Source: a virus. Taken from it: a stretch of 59,919 bases of DNA. The notes beneath the pieces were generated by a model that was not told the origin of the DNA, ran no database searches, and worked only from the letters and a program-made list of their open reading frames with translations. Position numbers and translations under genes: made by a program. This document shows positions 27,780-34,649 of the stretch, piece by piece; positions within the stretch are counted from its first letter, which is position 1; each line of letters opens with the position of its first letter. The stretch lies in the UHGV virus genome UHGV-0342645; one strand, 5' to 3'.

Positions 27780-27827
27780 TAACCCCGTTGGTAACAAACG
27801 AACCCATAACAATTCGGAGTGAAGAGA

Positions 27828-28628
27828 ATGAGCAACATTGAAGACAAAAAAGCTGCCGCCGCAGCCGCCGCTGCCGCTGCAAAATCTGCTAAACCTGCAA
27901 AGAAAGAAGCTACTGTGAATGATGCAGAAGCTAAGAAAGCCGCTGCCGCTGAAGCTGCACGCGTAGCAAAAGAGAAAAAAGAAGCAGAGAAAAAAGCTGC
28001 CGCTGAAAAGAAACAAGCTGAAATCCGCACTGAAGCGGAAAACAAATTTACCGCTCTTTCCCAGGCAGTTGAAACCGTGAAGTTTGCTTTATCTGGTATT
28101 ACCGATGAAAGCACTGTTGAACAGATTACGGAAGCAGAATCTAAGGGTTCTGAACAGCTGAAGCATTTAAAGAATGCTCTGAAAGAGCTGAAAGCAGTTG
28201 TTAAAAAATCCAAAGGTGAAGATCTGTCCGGTGCAGTGACTGCTGCTCAGAGCATGGTAGACGAACTGGATTCGTCTATTAAAGGCTTCAAAGACAAGAT
28301 CCGTGCTGCAAAACAGGCAGAAAAAGAAGCGGAAAAAGCACGCGCTAAAGAGCTCCGCGAGAAAGAAAAAGAAGCTAATCGTATGCCGGAACAGAACGGT
28401 GTTCGTCGTCCGCAACCGGAAACTTCCTGCGGTCGTGCCTGGGCTCTGATGGACCAGATTAGCGCTACGCTGGGTCAGCCTGCTCCGATCTCTTATGTTC
28501 TGAATCTGGCTGGTCGCCAGGGGCTGAACGAAGATACCGTTAAAACCCAGTATGCACGCTGGAAGAAATTTAATGGTGTAACTGGTCGCGTACCTGTACC
28601 AGTACCGGAAGCCCTGAACGGCTTGTAA
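27828..28628 (+). CDS. Ala/Lys/Glu-rich (histone-H1-like) protein with globular C-terminal domain
   Basis: ATG 27828 with GGAG SD. The N-terminal ~190 aa are AKE repeats (KKAAAAAAAAAAKSAKPAKKE...). The C-terminal ~70 aa are non-repetitive. Confidence 0.65.
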   Translation: MSNIEDKKAAAAAAAAAAKSAKPAKKEATVNDAEAKKAAAAEAARVAKEKKEAEKKAAAEKKQAEIRTEAENKFTALSQAVETVKFALSGITDESTVEQITEAESKGSEQLKHLKNALKELKAVVKKSKGEDLSGAVTAAQSMVDELDSSIKGFKDKIRAAKQAEKEAEKARAKELREKEKEANRMPEQNGVRRPQPETSCGRAWALMDQISATLGQPAPISYVLNLAGRQGLNEDTVKTQYARWKKFNGVTGRVPVPVPEALNGL

Positions 28629-28697: not shown

Positions 28698-29405
28698 ATG
28701 AATATTAATCAACAAGCTCCCGAGTCTCGTTCTAAAGAAAACGATATGTATTTAGACGTGCATTCGGTATTCTCTACCATTCAGGGTGAAGGTCCGTTCT
28801 GCGGCCAGCCTGCTGTATTTGTGCGCCTTGCTGGATGTAACCTGCAATGCCCAGGCTGCGACACGGATTATACTGTTGGTCGTTCTCTTTACCACATTGT
28901 TGATATCATGCGTTTAATCGAAAGCCGTAAGCTGGAATCAGGCAATAGCACCTCACTTGTGGTTATTACTGGGGGTGAACCGTTCCGTCAGCAAATTAAC
29001 CCGCTTATTGAACAACTGTTATCGCGGGGCTATTTGGTGCAAATCGAAACTAATGGGTCTATGCCTTTACCTAAGAACTTTTCCCAGTTGCCTGTGATTG
29101 TATGTAGCCCCAAGACCTCAAAGATTCATCCTTCTGTGCTTTACCGCGCTAATGCATTTAAATATGTACTTAAAGCGTGCTGTGTAAACGTGGAAGATGG
29201 TTTACCCCTTCAAGCATTAGATCATCAAGCTACGCCATTTATCGCTAGACCTCCGAAGGGGTTCAAGGGTAAGATATATTTACAGCCAATGGACGAGCAG
29301 GATGAAGACCTTAACCACAGTAACATCCAAGCGGTTGTCCAAAGCTGTATGAAACACGGATACACGTTGCAGCTTCAGGTTCACAAATATATCGGGGTGG
29401 AATAA
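28698..29405 (+). CDS. queE: 7-carboxy-7-deazaguanine synthase (radical SAM)
   Basis: TIQGEGPFCGQPAVFVRLAGCNLQCPGCDTDYT is the QueE CxxxCxxC cluster context. 235 aa. Confidence 0.85.
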   Translation: MNINQQAPESRSKENDMYLDVHSVFSTIQGEGPFCGQPAVFVRLAGCNLQCPGCDTDYTVGRSLYHIVDIMRLIESRKLESGNSTSLVVITGGEPFRQQINPLIEQLLSRGYLVQIETNGSMPLPKNFSQLPVIVCSPKTSKIHPSVLYRANAFKYVLKACCVNVEDGLPLQALDHQATPFIARPPKGFKGKIYLQPMDEQDEDLNHSNIQAVVQSCMKHGYTLQLQVHKYIGVE

Positions 29406-29659
29406 TGCGTGTGTTAAGTCGGGTTGTGCATACTAAAGATGTTAATTTTTATGGTGTCACTTTAACCGTTCCAAGTCGAGTTGATTATCTGGCAGCTGAC
29501 AAGGATGGAAAGGTTTGTGGGTATGAAGTAGCTCCTCCAGAACTCAGTCATCGATTTGATAGATGGCTGCCAGCAGATCCGGGAGCTTACGAGTACGATG
29601 AAATAGCTTATGTAGACCTTGAAGGCTTAGACTGGACTCAAACATTAAGGGAGGTTTAA
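29405..29659 (+). CDS. hypothetical protein, third member of the paralogue family
   Basis: TAATG overlap with queE. VDYLAADKDGKV...VDLEGLDWTQTLREV matches 8050..8352 and 8683..8934. Confidence 0.65.
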   Translation: MRVLSRVVHTKDVNFYGVTLTVPSRVDYLAADKDGKVCGYEVAPPELSHRFDRWLPADPGAYEYDEIAYVDLEGLDWTQTLREV

Positions 29660-29872
29660 ATGATCACTTTAGAAGAAGCGAAACAGCATCAGGAAATGAT
29701 CACTGAGATTGTAGAAAAACTTAATTCTGCAATTGCTCACGCTACTATGCAGGGTGTACATGTTGAATTAGATATTAACCACGTTAGCACAATCGGAGCA
29801 CGCAATCATCCGATTGTGCTGTCAAATGTAACAATTAATCCTTGTGATATTAAAGGTGTAGAAGATGAATGA
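29660..29872 (+). CDS. hypothetical protein (tandem paralogue A)
   Basis: 70 aa. EKLNSAIAHATMQGVHVELDI aligns with DELNDAICRAASKNIHSELEI of the next ORF. Confidence 0.6.
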   Translation: MITLEEAKQHQEMITEIVEKLNSAIAHATMQGVHVELDINHVSTIGARNHPIVLSNVTINPCDIKGVEDE

Positions 29873-30053
29873 AGAAACTGTAATTCTTATGCAGAAAATT
29901 CAACGTTTACAGGACGAGTTGAATGACGCTATTTGCCGCGCTGCATCCAAGAACATACATTCGGAGCTTGAAATACACCAGCGTAAGGTAACATCTGAAG
30001 CGGTGGTGGAACAAGTAGTCATTAACCTCAATATTAGTCTTAAAGGTTTCTAA
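29865..30053 (+). CDS. hypothetical protein (tandem paralogue B)
   Basis: 62 aa with an 8-nt overlap with the upstream ORF. Ends 1 nt before queC. Confidence 0.6.
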   Translation: MNEETVILMQKIQRLQDELNDAICRAASKNIHSELEIHQRKVTSEAVVEQVVINLNISLKGF

Positions 30054-30054
30054 A

Positions 30055-30762
30055 ATGAATAAATTAGATAAACTGGTATTCCCTGTAAAAAATCATAACT
30101 CCGCCGTTGTAGTCCTGTCTGGCGGCCAGGACAGTGTGACCTGTTTAGGTCTTGCACTTAATAACTATGATAAGGTTTACGCTATTGGTTTTGCATACGG
30201 TCAACGTCATAACATTGAGCTGGCTTGTGCTAATCAAATTTGTAAAGAGCACGATGTCCCATTTGTTGTCTTTGAATTACCTGCTTTGAAACAGATTGGG
30301 AATAGCGCTTTAATCGGGGATGAAGGTGATGTTAACGAACATCACGAACAGCACAACAACCTTCCGGCAAGCTTTGTGCCAAACCGTAATGCTCTTTTCC
30401 TCACTACCGCGCACGCTTACGCACAGAAAGTTGGCGCTCGATATGTGGTTACGGGCGTTTGTGAAACAGACTATAGCGGTTATCCGGATTGCCGCCAGCA
30501 GTTTGTAAACTTGCTTGAAGCTACATTAAACGTTGGATATGAAACTGATATCCATTTTGTTACACCGCTTATGCGTTTAAATAAAGCGGAAACGTTTGAA
30601 CTGGCGGATAAGGTTGGTTTCTTAACCACAGTAATTGAACAGTCCCATACTTGCTATAACGGTGTCCGTCGCACTCTGCATGACTGGGGCTATGGTTGCG
30701 GTGAATGCCCTGCGTGCAAACTGCGTGCTAAAGGGTACAGCGAATTTATTAGCAAAGCTTAA
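30055..30762 (+). CDS. queC: 7-cyano-7-deazaguanine (preQ0) synthase, stand-alone form
   Basis: PP-loop VVLSGGQDS, C-terminal Zn-site cysteines (CYNG...CGECPAC). 235 aa with no fused amidotransferase domain. Confidence 0.85.
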   Translation: MNKLDKLVFPVKNHNSAVVVLSGGQDSVTCLGLALNNYDKVYAIGFAYGQRHNIELACANQICKEHDVPFVVFELPALKQIGNSALIGDEGDVNEHHEQHNNLPASFVPNRNALFLTTAHAYAQKVGARYVVTGVCETDYSGYPDCRQQFVNLLEATLNVGYETDIHFVTPLMRLNKAETFELADKVGFLTTVIEQSHTCYNGVRRTLHDWGYGCGECPACKLRAKGYSEFISKA

Positions 30763-30882
30763 TCTTACCGCGAAAACCGCACCGCTAGCGCATTGTTTAG
30801 GGTGCGGGAACCCAACTATACTACTAAAGCTTTTAAACCCAACAACCAGCGAATACCGCTGTTAAAACTGGAGAACAAAAGT

Positions 30883-31362
30883 ATGAAATTTATCGTCGCT
30901 TATTTGGCTGCAATTACATTCGTAAATCTGGGCTTTTCCTACCTCCCAATGCTTAACACGCCTCTTGGCGTAGTCCCCATGATGGCTTTCTTTGTAGGTA
31001 TTATCTTTGTGTTGCGTGACTACGCACAGCGTAACGCTGGCAAAGGCGTTATCCCTGCAATGATTGTGGGTTGCATCCTTAGCTGGGTATTTGGGGACCC
31101 TGCTGTTGTAGTTGCATCCGTTGCATCCTTTGCTCTTAGCGAGTTTGCGGACTATGCGGTATACACGATTACTAAGAAGCCGTTTCATCAACGTGTATTT
31201 ATCAGCTCTTTGGTAGCTGTACCAATTGACTCCATTGTGTTCTTAAGTATTATAGGTATTGTTAATCCGGGATCAATGGTAGCAATGAGCTTAAGTAAGT
31301 TCACAGCATCTGCCATCCTTTGGGTTGTTTACGAAGTTCATTCACGTACAGCGAGAGCGTAA
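30883..31362 (+). CDS. yhhQ: YhhQ/DUF165-like queuosine-precursor transporter (short form)
   Basis: ATG 30883 with GGAG SD. Polytopic membrane protein. VLRDYAQR, SEFADYAVY and PIDSIVF align with conserved YhhQ segments. Confidence 0.6.
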   Translation: MKFIVAYLAAITFVNLGFSYLPMLNTPLGVVPMMAFFVGIIFVLRDYAQRNAGKGVIPAMIVGCILSWVFGDPAVVVASVASFALSEFADYAVYTITKKPFHQRVFISSLVAVPIDSIVFLSIIGIVNPGSMVAMSLSKFTASAILWVVYEVHSRTARA

Positions 31363-31363
31363 A

Positions 31364-31954
31364 ATGAAAGATAATTTGAATAAAATTTGGCATCAACACG
31401 ACGGTAAAGGAATGCCTATTTTTCTTCGTAATGAGAAGTTTGAAGTTCGTTTGCGCAACGGCACACACGTTAAGAATCTATTACATGGATGGGATTGGGC
31501 TATGGAAGGGCGTTCAGCTATGGATGAGAATAGCCCTTATAAAGTTCAAGATATTATAGCCTGGCGATATATTGTTGCGGATGATTACGTCAAACAAGCC
31601 GGCGAAAACACTCGCTCCGGAGTGTGCCATCAATCTTCTTCTGGAATAAGCATAAGTAATACATTTAATGGTGCAGTTTTTACGAAATATGAACCATCTA
31701 AAATTCCCATGAATAAATATCAGAAAATTATTTATGGTAAAGATCAAAACGGCAATGTTGTAAAATGCATCGTGGACGTGTATGATGTCTTGGAAGCTTG
31801 GAAAACGACTAACCCAGCTTTACAACATTTGATTAAAAAGGCGTTGCAGCCTGGCGAACGCGGTCATAAAAGTCTGGTAGAAGACTTGAAAGATATTATT
31901 GCATCTGCACAGCGTGCGTTAGAAATTGAACAGTCTAAAGAGGTGTTAAAATGA
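31364..31954 (+). CDS. hypothetical protein with DUF3310-like C-terminus
   Basis: ATG 31364, 1 nt after the yhhQ-like stop. C-terminal VDVYDVLEAW...ALQHLIKKALQPGERGHKSLVEDLKDIIASAQRALE resembles DUF3310. Confidence 0.55.
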   Translation: MKDNLNKIWHQHDGKGMPIFLRNEKFEVRLRNGTHVKNLLHGWDWAMEGRSAMDENSPYKVQDIIAWRYIVADDYVKQAGENTRSGVCHQSSSGISISNTFNGAVFTKYEPSKIPMNKYQKIIYGKDQNGNVVKCIVDVYDVLEAWKTTNPALQHLIKKALQPGERGHKSLVEDLKDIIASAQRALEIEQSKEVLK

Positions 31955-32484
31955 GCTATACAGTAATTCGTTCACATGAAATTTGTGCTGGACATCGTGT
32001 TGTAGGACATGAAAGCAAGTGTCGTCATCTTCACGGTCACAACTATAAGTTTCACTTTAAGGTTGCACCGAAGCGCGTAGAAAGCGAAAACTACATCCCG
32101 GGCGCGAAAGGTTTCTCCGTTGAAGGTAAACTGGACGATGTCGGGCGCGTTATTGATTTTAGTGTGGTTAAGACTACGCTCTGTCAGTGGCTGGAAGACA
32201 ACTGGGATCACAAGTTCCTGCACTGGGAAAATGATCCTCTCATTAAAGGCCTCGATGCTCTTTTACGTCACGACGCTGCTATAGGGTATGACGTGGTAGA
32301 GCAAGAGGACGGATCCCATTTCTTTGACTCACTGGTAGCGCTACCGTTCAACCCAACTGCGGAGAACTTAGCTGCATATATGGTTAACGTAATTGGACCG
32401 CAACTACTTGACGGACATGGTGTTCAACTTGTAGAATGCACCATCGAAGAAACTTCGAAATGCCACGTAAATTATAGCCTGTAA
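31951..32484 (+). CDS. queD: 6-carboxy-5,6,7,8-tetrahydropterin synthase
   Basis: EICAGHRV...CRHLHGHNY (Cys/His zinc and catalytic motifs of QueD/PTPS). ATGA overlap with the upstream ORF. Confidence 0.85.
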   Translation: MSYTVIRSHEICAGHRVVGHESKCRHLHGHNYKFHFKVAPKRVESENYIPGAKGFSVEGKLDDVGRVIDFSVVKTTLCQWLEDNWDHKFLHWENDPLIKGLDALLRHDAAIGYDVVEQEDGSHFFDSLVALPFNPTAENLAAYMVNVIGPQLLDGHGVQLVECTIEETSKCHVNYSL

Positions 32485-32519
32485 TATGACCACATTAACA
32501 AACAAGGAAACTGCAAACC

Positions 32520-33101
32520 ATGCGTAAAGATACTGTAAAAATTGCTATTAGTTCATTACTTTTAAATATTGAAGGTTCAACAGAACTCCGTCCTGGGTTG
32601 GAAGAGACTCCTGAACGTGTCGCTAAAGCATACCAGACGTGGTTCGGCGGTTACGATGTAGATATCGCTGGATTGTTTAAAACCTTTGAGGATGGGGCTG
32701 AAAACACCAATGAAATGGTCATTGCCCGTGATATTCCTGTATACAGTCATTGTGAGCATCACATGGCTCCTATTATCGGTCATGCTGTTGTGGGTTATGT
32801 TCCCAATGGGAAGATCGTTGGGCTCAGTAAACTGTCTCGCGTAGTTGATGCTTTTAGCCGTCGCTTGCAAGTCCAAGAGCGTCTAACTAACCAGATTGCA
32901 GACGCTATCCAGGAGCATTTAAACCCGAAAGCTGTATGCGTTTATATTGACGCCAAACATATGTGCATGGAGTCGCGCGGTGTTAAGCAGGTATGCGGCA
33001 GCTCTACCATTACCAAAGCGTTCCGGGGCGCTACAGAACTGGAGCATGGTAGCGATATTGGTAAAGAATGGCGCCGGGAGTTCCTTGAAGCTTGTAAATA
33101 A
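32520..33101 (+). CDS. folE: GTP cyclohydrolase I
   Basis: YSHCEHHMAPIIG and QVQERLT motifs. 193 aa. Confidence 0.9.
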   Translation: MRKDTVKIAISSLLLNIEGSTELRPGLEETPERVAKAYQTWFGGYDVDIAGLFKTFEDGAENTNEMVIARDIPVYSHCEHHMAPIIGHAVVGYVPNGKIVGLSKLSRVVDAFSRRLQVQERLTNQIADAIQEHLNPKAVCVYIDAKHMCMESRGVKQVCGSSTITKAFRGATELEHGSDIGKEWRREFLEACK

Positions 33102-33119
33102 TAGATAGCTTTACAGATC

Positions 33120-33156
33120 AAGCCCATATCGGTCATAATACTGGTATGGGCTTTTT
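33120..33156 (+). terminator. intrinsic terminator after folE
   Basis: AAGCCCATA, 16-nt loop, TATGGGCTT, followed by TTTT. Confidence 0.55.
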
Positions 33157-33171
33157 AGTTGGTATAAGACA

Positions 33172-33729
33172 ATGGAAATTATCACAAGAGCTGAAGCAAA
33201 AGAAAGAGGTTTGAAATATTATTTTACTGGTAAGCCTTGTGCGAAAGGTCATCTTTCTGAAAGAAAGACTGTAGATGGCTATTGCATTACTTGTGACAGA
33301 GAAGCACGAAAGAAAAGAATGCGTATTTACAATAAAACAGAAGCTGCAAGGAATGCTATTAAGAGATATCATAAGTCACAGAAAGGAAAAGAAGCCCTTC
33401 AACGTTCAAAAGCTGCTTATAATTCTACTGAGAAAGGTAAAGAACAAAATAAAGAAAGGCTGAAACGCTGGGCTAAGACAGATTACGGTAAAGCTAGATC
33501 AAGATTACATTCCCTTGAAGTGCATAAGAAAAGGTCTTTAAGAATCCCTGCGTGGTCTGAAAAAGAACAAATTGAATTGTTCTACGCTAACTGCCCGGAT
33601 GGGATGGAGGTTGATCATATTATACCTCTTTGCGGTAAAAGAGTTAGTGGACTTCACGTCCTTAGTAACCTACAATACTTATCTATTGAAGAAAACAGAT
33701 CTAAGCGTAATAAATTTGAGGTGGAATAA
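33172..33729 (+). CDS. HNH homing-type endonuclease
   Basis: C-terminal EVDHIIPL...GLHVLSNLQYLSIEENRSKRN (H-N-H). N-terminal YYFTGKPCAKGH...CITC zinc-ribbon-like repeat. Confidence 0.8.
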   Translation: MEIITRAEAKERGLKYYFTGKPCAKGHLSERKTVDGYCITCDREARKKRMRIYNKTEAARNAIKRYHKSQKGKEALQRSKAAYNSTEKGKEQNKERLKRWAKTDYGKARSRLHSLEVHKKRSLRIPAWSEKEQIELFYANCPDGMEVDHIIPLCGKRVSGLHVLSNLQYLSIEENRSKRNKFEVE

Positions 33730-34649
33730 TGCATCTGTTTGTTGCTGCGGTATATACCAACGGCTATAAAGCTGGTCAACAACGATATGAAAAGTTAAAC
33801 GATCGGGAAAAGGACATCGTTAATAGCCTACCAAATATTTTGGAATCATACCACTACGTTGGACGTCAGAAGTATGTTGATCAAATGCGTGCGGACGGGG
33901 CTAAAGTGTTTCTCGACTCCGGAGCATTCTCCGCGCACTCGTTAGGTGCTCACATTGATATTGTCGAATATTGCGAATACATCAAACGCAATAAAGATAT
34001 CCTGCGCGTAGAAGATGGTGCTGTAATGGCGTCAGTGCTTGATGGTATCGGTGATCCACTGCAAACCTACCGTAACCAGCTTGAAATGGAAGCACGCGGT
34101 GCTAAACCGTTACCTTGCTTTCACTTTGGGGAGGACTTCCGCTATCTCGAATATTACATGAAGAACTACGAATATATCACCATCGGGGGCATGGTAGGGC
34201 GTTCCACGGACACGCTTAAAACTTGGCTTGACCGCATGTGGGATAAATATATTTGCGATGGTAGCGGTCGCCCTAAGATTAAGCTTCATGCATTTGGTAT
34301 TACGTCCACTACCATTATGGAACGTTACCCGTGGTATAGCTGTGACTCATCCTCCTGGATTCAAGCGGCAGCGTTTGGAAGTGTGGTTACTCCTCCGTGG
34401 GGCCCGATGCGCGTATCTGACAAGTCACCGGACCGACACCATTTCGGTAAGCACGTTTCAACGCTAACTGAAATTGAACAAGACGCTGTCCTTAAATACC
34501 TTGAGCAAAACGGTTTCACTTACGAACGTTTATCAACAATCTATGAATCACGTGCTGCCTTCAACTTATGGGCGTATGGTGTAATTGCTGCAAACATTAA
34601 CGCTACCCATGACGGCACATTCCGTGATCGTGTAATGGAGTTGTTCTGA
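33729..34649 (+). CDS. dpdA: DpdA-like DNA 7-deazaguanine transglycosylase (TGT superfamily)
   Basis: 306 aa. MHLFVAAVYTNG..., ILESYHY and FLDSGAFS (catalytic Asp context) resemble phage DpdA. Genetically linked to the preQ0 pathway. Confidence 0.7.
   Translation: MHLFVAAVYTNGYKAGQQRYEKLNDREKDIVNSLPNILESYHYVGRQKYVDQMRADGAKVFLDSGAFSAHSLGAHIDIVEYCEYIKRNKDILRVEDGAVMASVLDGIGDPLQTYRNQLEMEARGAKPLPCFHFGEDFRYLEYYMKNYEYITIGGMVGRSTDTLKTWLDRMWDKYICDGSGRPKIKLHAFGITSTTIMERYPWYSCDSSSWIQAAAFGSVVTPPWGPMRVSDKSPDRHHFGKHVSTLTEIEQDAVLKYLEQNGFTYERLSTIYESRAAFNLWAYGVIAANINATHDGTFRDRVMELF

Follow-up and report, generated by a model that had tools for sequence, protein, structure and literature searches.

A gene embedded in a pathway operon invites the question of whether its product serves that pathway or has merely settled there. 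The window analyzed here, a 59,919-nt stretch of the virus genome UHGV-0342645, belongs to a Seuratvirus (Queuovirinae; CAjan/Seurat-like) and carries a cluster of 7-deazaguanine (preQ0) modification genes, within which an open reading frame (ORF) of 196 codons (31364-31954, + strand) is lodged between a yhhQ-like preQ0 transporter gene and queD. A first-pass annotation, made from the letters alone, had taken this ORF for a candidate accessory factor of the modification pathway on the strength of a fixed, coupled position in the operon. Our analysis indicates that it is probably a general accessory gene of DNA and nucleotide metabolism rather than a dedicated part of the preQ0 pathway, because the family to which its conserved C-terminal tail belongs is found mostly in phages without deazaguanine modification.

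The ORF is a real gene and not a chance reading frame, as follows from a full-length match to phrog_23361 (residues 1-196 aligned with all 181 profile positions, E = 4.4e-101), from full-length homologs in 60 clusters, and from low ratios of non-synonymous to synonymous rates (dN/dS; 0.14 in the N-terminal domain and 0.04-0.07 in the C-terminal domain), which indicate purifying selection in both domains. The yhhQ-like gene ends in TAA at 31360-31362; after a single base the ORF opens with an ATG at 31364, and the frame stays open for 196 codons up to the TGA at 31952-31954, which shares an ATGA (31951-31954) with the queD start codon at 31951. The boundaries given by the first-pass annotation, 1 nt past the yhhQ-like stop and overlapping queD, agree exactly with these coordinates, and the C-terminal segment that it quoted, VDVYDVLEAW...LQHLIKKALQPGERGHKSLVEDLKDIIASAQRALE, is contained in the product. 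Read from the sequence, a Shine–Dalgarno-like GAGAG (31353-31357, +) lies 6 nt 5' of the start within the 3' end of yhhQ. The queD ribosome-binding site AAAGAGGTG (31937-31945) and the ATGA overlap, which together span 31937-31954 (+), are both encoded by the final codons of the ORF. Rfam searches of the window and of the surroundings of the ORF detected neither a riboswitch nor any other RNA, and a scan for promoters and terminators gave no signal above background. Dozens of published genomes already contain the gene under the label of a hypothetical protein, the annotation carried by the orthologs in Seurat (gp37), SA80RD and CAjan (gp40), and a literature search by locus tags and PHROG identifiers returned nothing relevant.

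AlphaFold2 modeling from an 81-sequence alignment (mean predicted local distance difference test score, pLDDT, 65.6) divides the protein into two domains and a linker. Residues 1-72 (31364-31579, +) form a small β-rich N-terminal domain, recognized by its predicted strands (pLDDT 64-80). They are followed by a hypervariable, probably disordered linker with indels between phages, delimited by pLDDT and identity (residues 73-114; 31580-31705, +), in which residues 75-111 have a pLDDT below 50 and where dN/dS is 0.69. PHROG matches, the model and conservation together define a C-terminal domain, hereafter the C-domain (residues 115-196; 31706-31951, +), with a near-invariant core at residues 137-190 (31772-31933). 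In the model the C-domain consists of a β-hairpin (120-126/132-138) and three helices (139-145, 151-161 and 171-195), with block-mean pLDDT values of 64-91 over residues 121-196. Conservation is distributed very unevenly along the chain: across 58 full-length homologs, mean identity to the query is 61% in the N-domain, 43% in the linker (with 20% gaps) and 93% in the C-domain.

The two domains also differ in range. By tblastn, the N-domain was found in 34 records only, all among Seuratvirus-cluster genomes, and its alleles are deeply diverged (47-99% identity) yet under purifying selection. A likeness of the N-domain to two other proteins, P0081 and P0115, through a W..HDG..P motif was rejected as not significant; therefore no claim of this two-domain architecture is made outside Seuratvirus. 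The C-domain, searched in the same way, was found in 758 phage records, led by those of Salmonella (369) and Escherichia (192), with further hosts in Acinetobacter, Klebsiella, Vibrio, Aeromonas, Proteus and Pseudomonas.

Profile comparison places the C-domain with phrog_2452, 35158, 13223, 18443 and 17613 (E = 3e-29 to 4e-13). A word-indexed search retrieved 410 relatives. Outside the Seuratvirus-like proteins, these are 110-282 aa long and match over the last ~55-70 residues alone, with 50-79% identity; Pfam recognized no domain in any of these relatives, whose N-termini are unrelated. An exhaustive profile search extended the family to 4344 clusters (50% identity) at E ≤ 1e-3, 2593 of them at E ≤ 1e-10. 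Copies found in proteins that are otherwise unrelated share 70-85% identity with the core, and a second subfamily around the AbP2 protein is equally conserved. The domain is modular: it stands alone in SETP3 ORF21 (76 aa), AbP2 (81 aa) and ZC08 (79 aa), takes the N-terminal position in three proteins (P0064, P0065 and P0068), and in Aeromonas phage LAh_7 (locus L112, 2923-4383) forms the N-terminal part of a 486-aa protein that ends in a BRCT domain. This last fusion is annotated 'DNA ligase/BRCA1', and a gene resembling HAD-type polynucleotide kinase-phosphatase lies two genes downstream.

Within the C-domain, recurrent motifs are NKY, VDVYDVL, PALQHLIKKAL, PGERGHK (G-x-R-G-H-K) and EDLKDI..SA.RA (D-L-x-D-I). 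Twenty-nine columns are invariant across 24 diverse C-domain proteins, and ~16 invariant charged or polar residues fall within ~55 aa. They include one acidic pair at the N-terminus of helix 1 (D138-x-x-D141) and another at that of helix 3 (E173-D174-x-x-D177), H155, K158 and K159 on helix 2, and the loop G164-x-R166-G-H168-K169 that precedes helix 3. The C-domain thus belongs to a very large, strongly conserved and unnamed phage family (phrog_2452-like).

Members of this family are typically located among genes of replication, recombination and nucleotide metabolism. Their neighbors include replication protein O, DnaB, PolA and NinB, the combinations ERF-YqaJ-SSB-MazG and RecT-SSB, primase/D5 helicase, and PolA with a directly adjacent dCMP deaminase; no single neighbor gene was common to more than 13 of 77 C-domain loci. 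The clearest nucleotide-metabolism neighborhood found for the family is on an 83-kb metagenomic phage contig (L113, 5001-5817), where a 104-aa AbP2-like member follows DNA polymerase A and overlaps the start of the dCMP deaminase gene.

The distribution of the C-domain bears little relation to that of deazaguanine genes. At 77 of the 80 IMG/VR loci that carry the domain, none of queC, queD, queE, folE, dpdA or yhhQ lies within ±10 kb, and the remaining three are the Seuratvirus-like ones. Relatives of DpdA were found in 236 phage records (Mycobacterium 56, Escherichia 41, Pseudomonas 31, Salmonella 3) as against 758 for the C-domain, with little overlap in host taxa overall; in Salmonella the counts are 369 records with the C-domain and 3 with DpdA. 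From the dpdA side, seven IMG/VR loci with DpdA at 64-96% identity were sampled. Four of them are non-Seuratvirus (64-74% identity) and have a contiguous queE-queC-(queD)-folE-dpdA arrangement with neither yhhQ nor the C-domain. The deazaguanine cluster of Pseudomonas phage HTN2 likewise has no C-domain, and phage iggy, of the HTN2 lineage, makes dPreQ0 (PMC10484667). The C-domain co-occurs with dpdA only in the E. coli genera Seuratvirus and Nonagvirus. The co-occurrence of the ORF with dpdA across phages that the first-pass annotation had proposed as a check is thus confined to three of 80 loci, with five related dpdA clusters lacking the domain.

What kind of activity the C-domain may have is suggested by a possible distant relation to DUF3310, the domain of the T7 protein gp1.7, a metal-independent dGMP/dTMP kinase that confers sensitivity to dideoxythymidine. 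The first-pass annotation had noted a resemblance of the C-terminus to DUF3310; a remote likeness did emerge from profile alignment, helix positions and Foldseek, but membership of the family is not borne out by Pfam. For the comparison, the DUF3310 alignment was composed of T7-like proteins and a varied set of nine phage proteins that carry a nucleotide kinase or DUF3310 annotation. In hhalign, the C-domain profile aligned to it over 63-66 columns spanning the whole domain with a score of 17 (P = 0.018), which was reached by 2 of 200 column-shuffled controls, and a second test with an independently built pair of alignments returned the same register (P = 0.049), the alignments in this register covering 58-66 columns overall; profile-profile evidence is therefore marginal. 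A probability of 97.8% obtained with another query alignment (A3) was discarded as an artifact, that alignment having included T7 gp1.7 itself, and the meaningless output of the global mode was not used. In the hhalign register, the AlphaFold2 helices 139-145, 151-161 and 171-195 coincide with 22-28, 32-52 and 56-79 of the T7-type domain.

Foldseek of the ORF model against BFVD returned the protein's own family first and then four DUF3310-type models labeled 'nucleotide kinase' or 'polynucleotide kinase', namely a 'Nucleotide kinase' from Klebsiella phage P560 (E = 4e-3), a PAO1_Ab17 protein of 137 aa annotated 'polynucleotide kinase' (7e-3) and two 'nucleotide kinase' models at ~0.1, the kinase models having probabilities of 0.8-1.0; a DUF6378 protein was also among the matches. 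Like the 196-aa protein, T7 gp1.7 has a variable N-terminal part followed by a domain of ~60-70 aa at the extreme C-terminus. Both domains are modeled with three helices in the same order, and in the aligned register they share a Y (xHY/xKY), a K (LKY/IKK), a D (eDL) and, ahead of the last helix, a basic residue in a loop that contains Gly. Both are also restricted to phages and lie in early or DNA-metabolism regions. SaV of lactococcal phages offers a further parallel as a small early phage protein with the same kind of domain, in which a conserved middle and C-terminal part is flanked by variable segments; unlike the 196-aa protein, it comes from phages of Gram-positive bacteria, has a DUF3310 domain that Pfam recognizes, and has shown toxicity and interaction with AbiV. 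On balance we lean toward the view that the C-domain is a distant sister family of DUF3310 and not a member of it.

Two BFVD proteins with neighboring accessions touch on the same relation: A0A5J6T4Q0 is from Aeromonas phage vB_AhyS-A18P4, and A0A5J6T5G7 can only be guessed to be from the same phage. One of the two matches the C-domain family and the other canonical DUF3310. If both are encoded in one genome, the C-domain family and DUF3310 are not simply interchangeable.

The reading that we favor, with a probability of about 0.4, is that the ORF encodes a two-domain accessory protein of the Seuratvirus replication and nucleotide-metabolism module, not dedicated to preQ0 synthesis or insertion. 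The functional core is the C-terminal domain of ~70 aa, a β-hairpin with three helices, and the protein as a whole would be a gp1.7-like nucleotide-handling accessory of the replication module. The charged-residue pattern, the extreme conservation, the stand-alone forms of 76-81 aa and the distant link to gp1.7 lead us to propose, tentatively, that the C-domain works as a small oligomeric module for binding nucleotide phosphates and for phosphate transfer or hydrolysis. The DxxD and EDxxD motifs at the helix N-termini and the basic K-K...G-x-R-G-H-K loop are candidate binding elements. The lineage-specific N-domain and linker could serve as an adaptor, and the location beside yhhQ and queD would reflect insertion into a mosaic hot spot, with translational coupling to whichever gene follows. 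A much bolder version, which we regard as very improbable, would make the C-domain a new, widespread class of small metal-independent nucleotide phosphotransferases, sister to DUF3310/gp1.7, of which two subfamilies were recruited independently beside queC, one in each of the two E. coli genera of Queuovirinae; they would close a guanine salvage loop in which guanine released when DpdA exchanges bases passes through GMP, GDP and GTP to FolE and so feeds preQ0 synthesis during infection.

A number of results weigh against the gp1.7-like reading. Pfam found no DUF3310 at E ≤ 1 in the query and 81 family members, nor at E ≤ 10 in three divergent C-domain members; the query scores below the DUF3310 (PF11753) gathering threshold of 24 bits and so falls outside the family, and the positive control, T7 gp1.7, was matched at residues 122-184 with 81.5 bits (4.5e-23). 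The hhalign probability for DUF3310 was ~1-3%, searches of profile hidden Markov models (HMMs) against sequences between the C-domain family and DUF3310 were insignificant, and a T7-type DUF3310 HMM found no member in the window or in 88 loci (80 of them domain-bearing IMG/VR loci). The invariant DUF3310 pattern, H-Y ... G-N-x-x-K-Y-x-x-R ... K ... D-L-x-K, is not reproduced. Of its nine positions, three are identical in the query (Y119, K158 and D174) and one is conservatively replaced (R166 for K), while the H of HY, the N of GN, the Y of KY, the R and the K of DLxKA appear as K118, H155, K159, Q162 and D177. Since five of the nine invariants differ, a gp1.7-type catalytic mechanism may not be retained. 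In addition, helix 2 is shorter in the C-domain than in DUF3310, and the Seuratvirus copies have an extra β-hairpin. The reverse Foldseek search, with a T7-type DUF3310 model (pLDDT 83.7), did not place the C-domain family in its top 50, which was saturated with DUF3310, SaV and nucleotide-kinase proteins, so that a match of lower rank is possible. Among solved structures, sequence searches of the PDB with the family profile and the DUF3310 profile found nothing, and Foldseek against the PDB gave nothing below E = 0.5. To our knowledge, the biochemistry of DUF3310 is known for gp1.7 alone, SaV and the mycobacteriophage proteins being known only as toxic early proteins. Lastly, a member of the C-domain family adjoins queC in both E. 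coli genera of Queuovirinae, and a local functional link is possible.

The strongest competing explanation, which we nevertheless consider rather unlikely, is a non-enzymatic protein at the interface with host takeover or defense, in which the C-domain would bind a conserved host or defense protein, as has been proposed for the DUF3310 protein SaV, and the N-domain would tune or hide the interaction. Precedents come from the DUF3310 side: SaV is sensed by AbiV (PMC8306868), gp1.7 activates Avs5 (PMC11897194), and Waterfoul gp47 is strongly cytotoxic (PMC9339283, which also states that a role in the kinase activity of gp1.7 had been ascribed to DUF3310). The pattern of variation fits as well, no other segment of the cluster being as divergent as the N-domain and linker, whose alleles are deeply diverse, and so does the occurrence of many C-domain members among small early genes, e.g., beside the Lar restriction alleviation gene, with no neighbor family conserved across loci. 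However, the ~16 invariant charged or polar residues of the C-domain are better suited to a ligand-binding or active site, and replication and nucleotide-metabolism genes are frequent neighbors. Given its dN/dS of 0.14, the diversity of the N-domain is better accounted for by recombination among old alleles than by positive selection still at work. PADLOC gave no match, although its library covers defense rather than anti-defense proteins.

A dedicated role in deazaguanine modification, as a partner or specificity factor of DpdA, as a preQ0 carrier from YhhQ/QueC to DpdA, or as a supplier of G nucleotides to FolE, is in our view improbable. In its favor, the ORF is present directly after yhhQ in all 34 N-domain-bearing phage genomes, all of the Seuratvirus cluster, and is tightly coupled to yhhQ and, in the window, also to queD; moreover, gp1.7 acts on G nucleotides and the pathway begins from GTP. 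In the related Nonagvirus phages (9g-like, e.g., ChristophMerian bas19_0033, phrog_18443), a 252-aa protein with a C-domain of a different subfamily is encoded directly upstream of gat-queC, which could mean that the family was recruited twice. Against a dedicated role stand the distribution described above, including the clusters of HTN2 and the four IMG/VR loci, which do without the domain. The 196-aa protein has no similarity to the Que, Dpd or YhhQ families in Pfam or NCBIfam. The Queuovirinae deazaguanine cluster sits between helicase and polymerase genes, where the C-domain family is usually located in any case.

The position itself is less fixed than the first-pass annotation supposed: the slot right after yhhQ is constant in the Seuratviruses examined, but coupling to queD varies and the Nonagvirus location differs. 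CAjan gp40, Seurat gp37 and BASEL bas25_0038 are direct orthologs of the ORF, with the same architecture in the same slot, and differ from it in having 56-95% identity, other N-domain alleles and linker indels. In CAjan and SA80RD, an extra ORF separates the gp40-type gene from queD. This insertion, together with an HNH-like ORF elsewhere in the cluster of the window, marks the slot as a hot spot of recombination and insertion, and the ATGA coupling is accordingly not universal. Between the window and CAjan, amino-acid identity is 99% for YhhQ, 99% for QueE, 95% for QueC and 95% for DpdA, and 56% for the ORF; relative to Seurat the values are 100%, 99%, 99% and 95%, and 72%. Synonymous divergence has reached saturation only in this ORF: the proportion of synonymous differences (pS) is 0.70-0.85 in its N-domain as against 0.20-0.32 in the adjoining yhhQ, which indicates that old alleles have been exchanged and argues against a burst of positive selection. 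Nonagvirus bas19_0033 shares only the C-domain (core 57% identical), its N-terminal part of 190 aa being unrelated. Copies in unrelated proteins match the Seuratvirus core at 79-85% identity, so the copies of the two genera are not each other's closest relatives. They could represent two acquisitions into the same neighborhood or, equally, an ancestral gene common to both in which recombination replaced a domain.

A published mutant bears on the same point. The CAjan cluster comprises twelve genes, six with assigned function (Kot et al. 2020, PMC7544227), and in the drawing of the cluster gp40 appears as a gene of unknown function. The CAjan ΔyhhQ mutant has a genome of 59,120 bp, 550 bp under the wild type, with a 'genomic position of deletion 31 850' (PMC7544227, Table 1); for the other three mutants, the listed position falls inside the named gene. 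In CAjan NC_028776, gp40 occupies 31,513-32,082 and yhhQ 32,084-32,563, and the interval 31,513-32,563 (locus L111, 3014-4064) is homologous to 30883-31954 of the window. As yhhQ is only 480 bp long and 31,850 lies inside gp40, a 550-bp deletion at that position must reach gp40. If it spans 31,850-32,399, it would remove the gp40 start codon and codons 1-77, and by arithmetic it would possibly yield an in-frame fusion of YhhQ(1-54) with gp40(79-189). The ΔyhhQ mutant is thus probably a double truncation of yhhQ and gp40, a conclusion drawn from the published numbers, which do not give the end-points. The mutant shows wild-type-like modification and is restriction-resistant (PMC7544227). At least the N-domain therefore appears to be dispensable for modification, although the C-domain might survive as a fusion. 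With the domain lying mostly away from deazaguanine genes, five related clusters lacking it, an unfixed position and this deletion, the first-pass inference of an accessory factor of the modification pathway finds no support.

Equally doubtful is a small three-helix DNA- or RNA-binding regulator of expression or replication, with the basic K-K...R-G-H-K surface contacting nucleic acid: a helical bundle with a conserved basic patch, location in early regions beside repressor and replication-initiation genes, and the BRCT-domain fusion would suit it, but neither Pfam nor Foldseek against the PDB revealed a helix-turn-helix or other DNA-binding family, helices 2 and 3 are joined by a 9-residue loop that is no helix-turn-helix turn, and the many invariant acidic residues would be unusual in a nucleic-acid binder.

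The surrounding cluster was delimited by Pfam and NCBIfam matches and comparison with relatives at 28698-34649 (+), and across it the window is ~93% identical to Escherichia phages ECP2304, SHIN8, WildeMaa and Seurat. The gene order is queE, three small ORFs, queC, yhhQ, the 196-aa ORF, queD, folE, the HNH-like ORF and dpdA, all on the + strand. The queE gene lies at 28698-29405 and queC at 30055-30762. The yhhQ-like preQ0 transporter gene, of 159 aa from the ATG used in annotated homologs (30883-31362), is identified by partial matches to Vut_1 and TIGR00697, and its product is 99-100% identical to the CAjan and Seurat proteins. These are followed by queD (31951-32484; PTPS match, 7e-22), folE (32520-33101), the HNH-like ORF of 185 aa (33172-33729; weak Pfam HNH at the C-terminus, E = 0.22) and dpdA (33729-34649).

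Several features of the cluster merit mention in their own right. The stop of the HNH-like ORF overlaps the dpdA start, Seurat and CAjan have just a 68-aa ORF at this place, and the ORF looks like a homing-endonuclease-type insertion within the cluster. Between queE and queC (29405-30053, +), three small coupled ORFs of 84, 70 and 62 aa are conserved across Seuratviruses (phrog_1972, 26258 and 24420) and are tied more tightly to the cluster than the 196-aa ORF; phrog_26258 is labeled 'radical SAM domain-containing protein' despite its length of 70 aa. The cluster's sole sizeable non-coding stretch is the 120-nt gap from queC to the annotated yhhQ start (30763-30882). PreQ1 riboswitches are frequent on bacterial yhhQ and queT genes; Rfam found nothing in this gap, even at E ≤ 1. 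The window DpdA is 95-99% identical to the experimentally validated Seuratvirus DpdA, has no Pfam match and scores only 17 bits (E = 0.002) with the NCBIfam DpdA model, whose cut-off is 200, so standard libraries miss this DpdA subfamily. Upstream of queE, a 269-aa ORF (27819-28628, +) encodes 11 consecutive alanines and a long low-complexity region rich in Lys, Ala and Glu; its homolog is labeled 'transcriptional activator FtrA domain-containing protein' in CAjan and SA80RD.

Together, these results place the C-domain of the 196-aa protein in a very large unnamed family that is largely independent of deazaguanine clusters, and they add a marginal but coherent link to DUF3310/gp1.7 and the observation on the CAjan ΔyhhQ deletion. 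For deazaguanine biology, the outcome is mainly one of caution: of the six 'white' genes in the 12-gene CAjan cluster, one is most plausibly a general-purpose phage module that was inserted there rather than a pathway enzyme still to be accounted for, and the published ΔyhhQ mutant may be a double mutant. For phage biology more broadly, the C-domain is one of the larger unnamed phage protein families, without a Pfam model and with a near-invariant core across unrelated phages, and the gp1.7/DUF3310 nucleotide kinases, themselves poorly understood, offer its sole distant lead. Finding its biochemical function would annotate thousands of phage genes at once.

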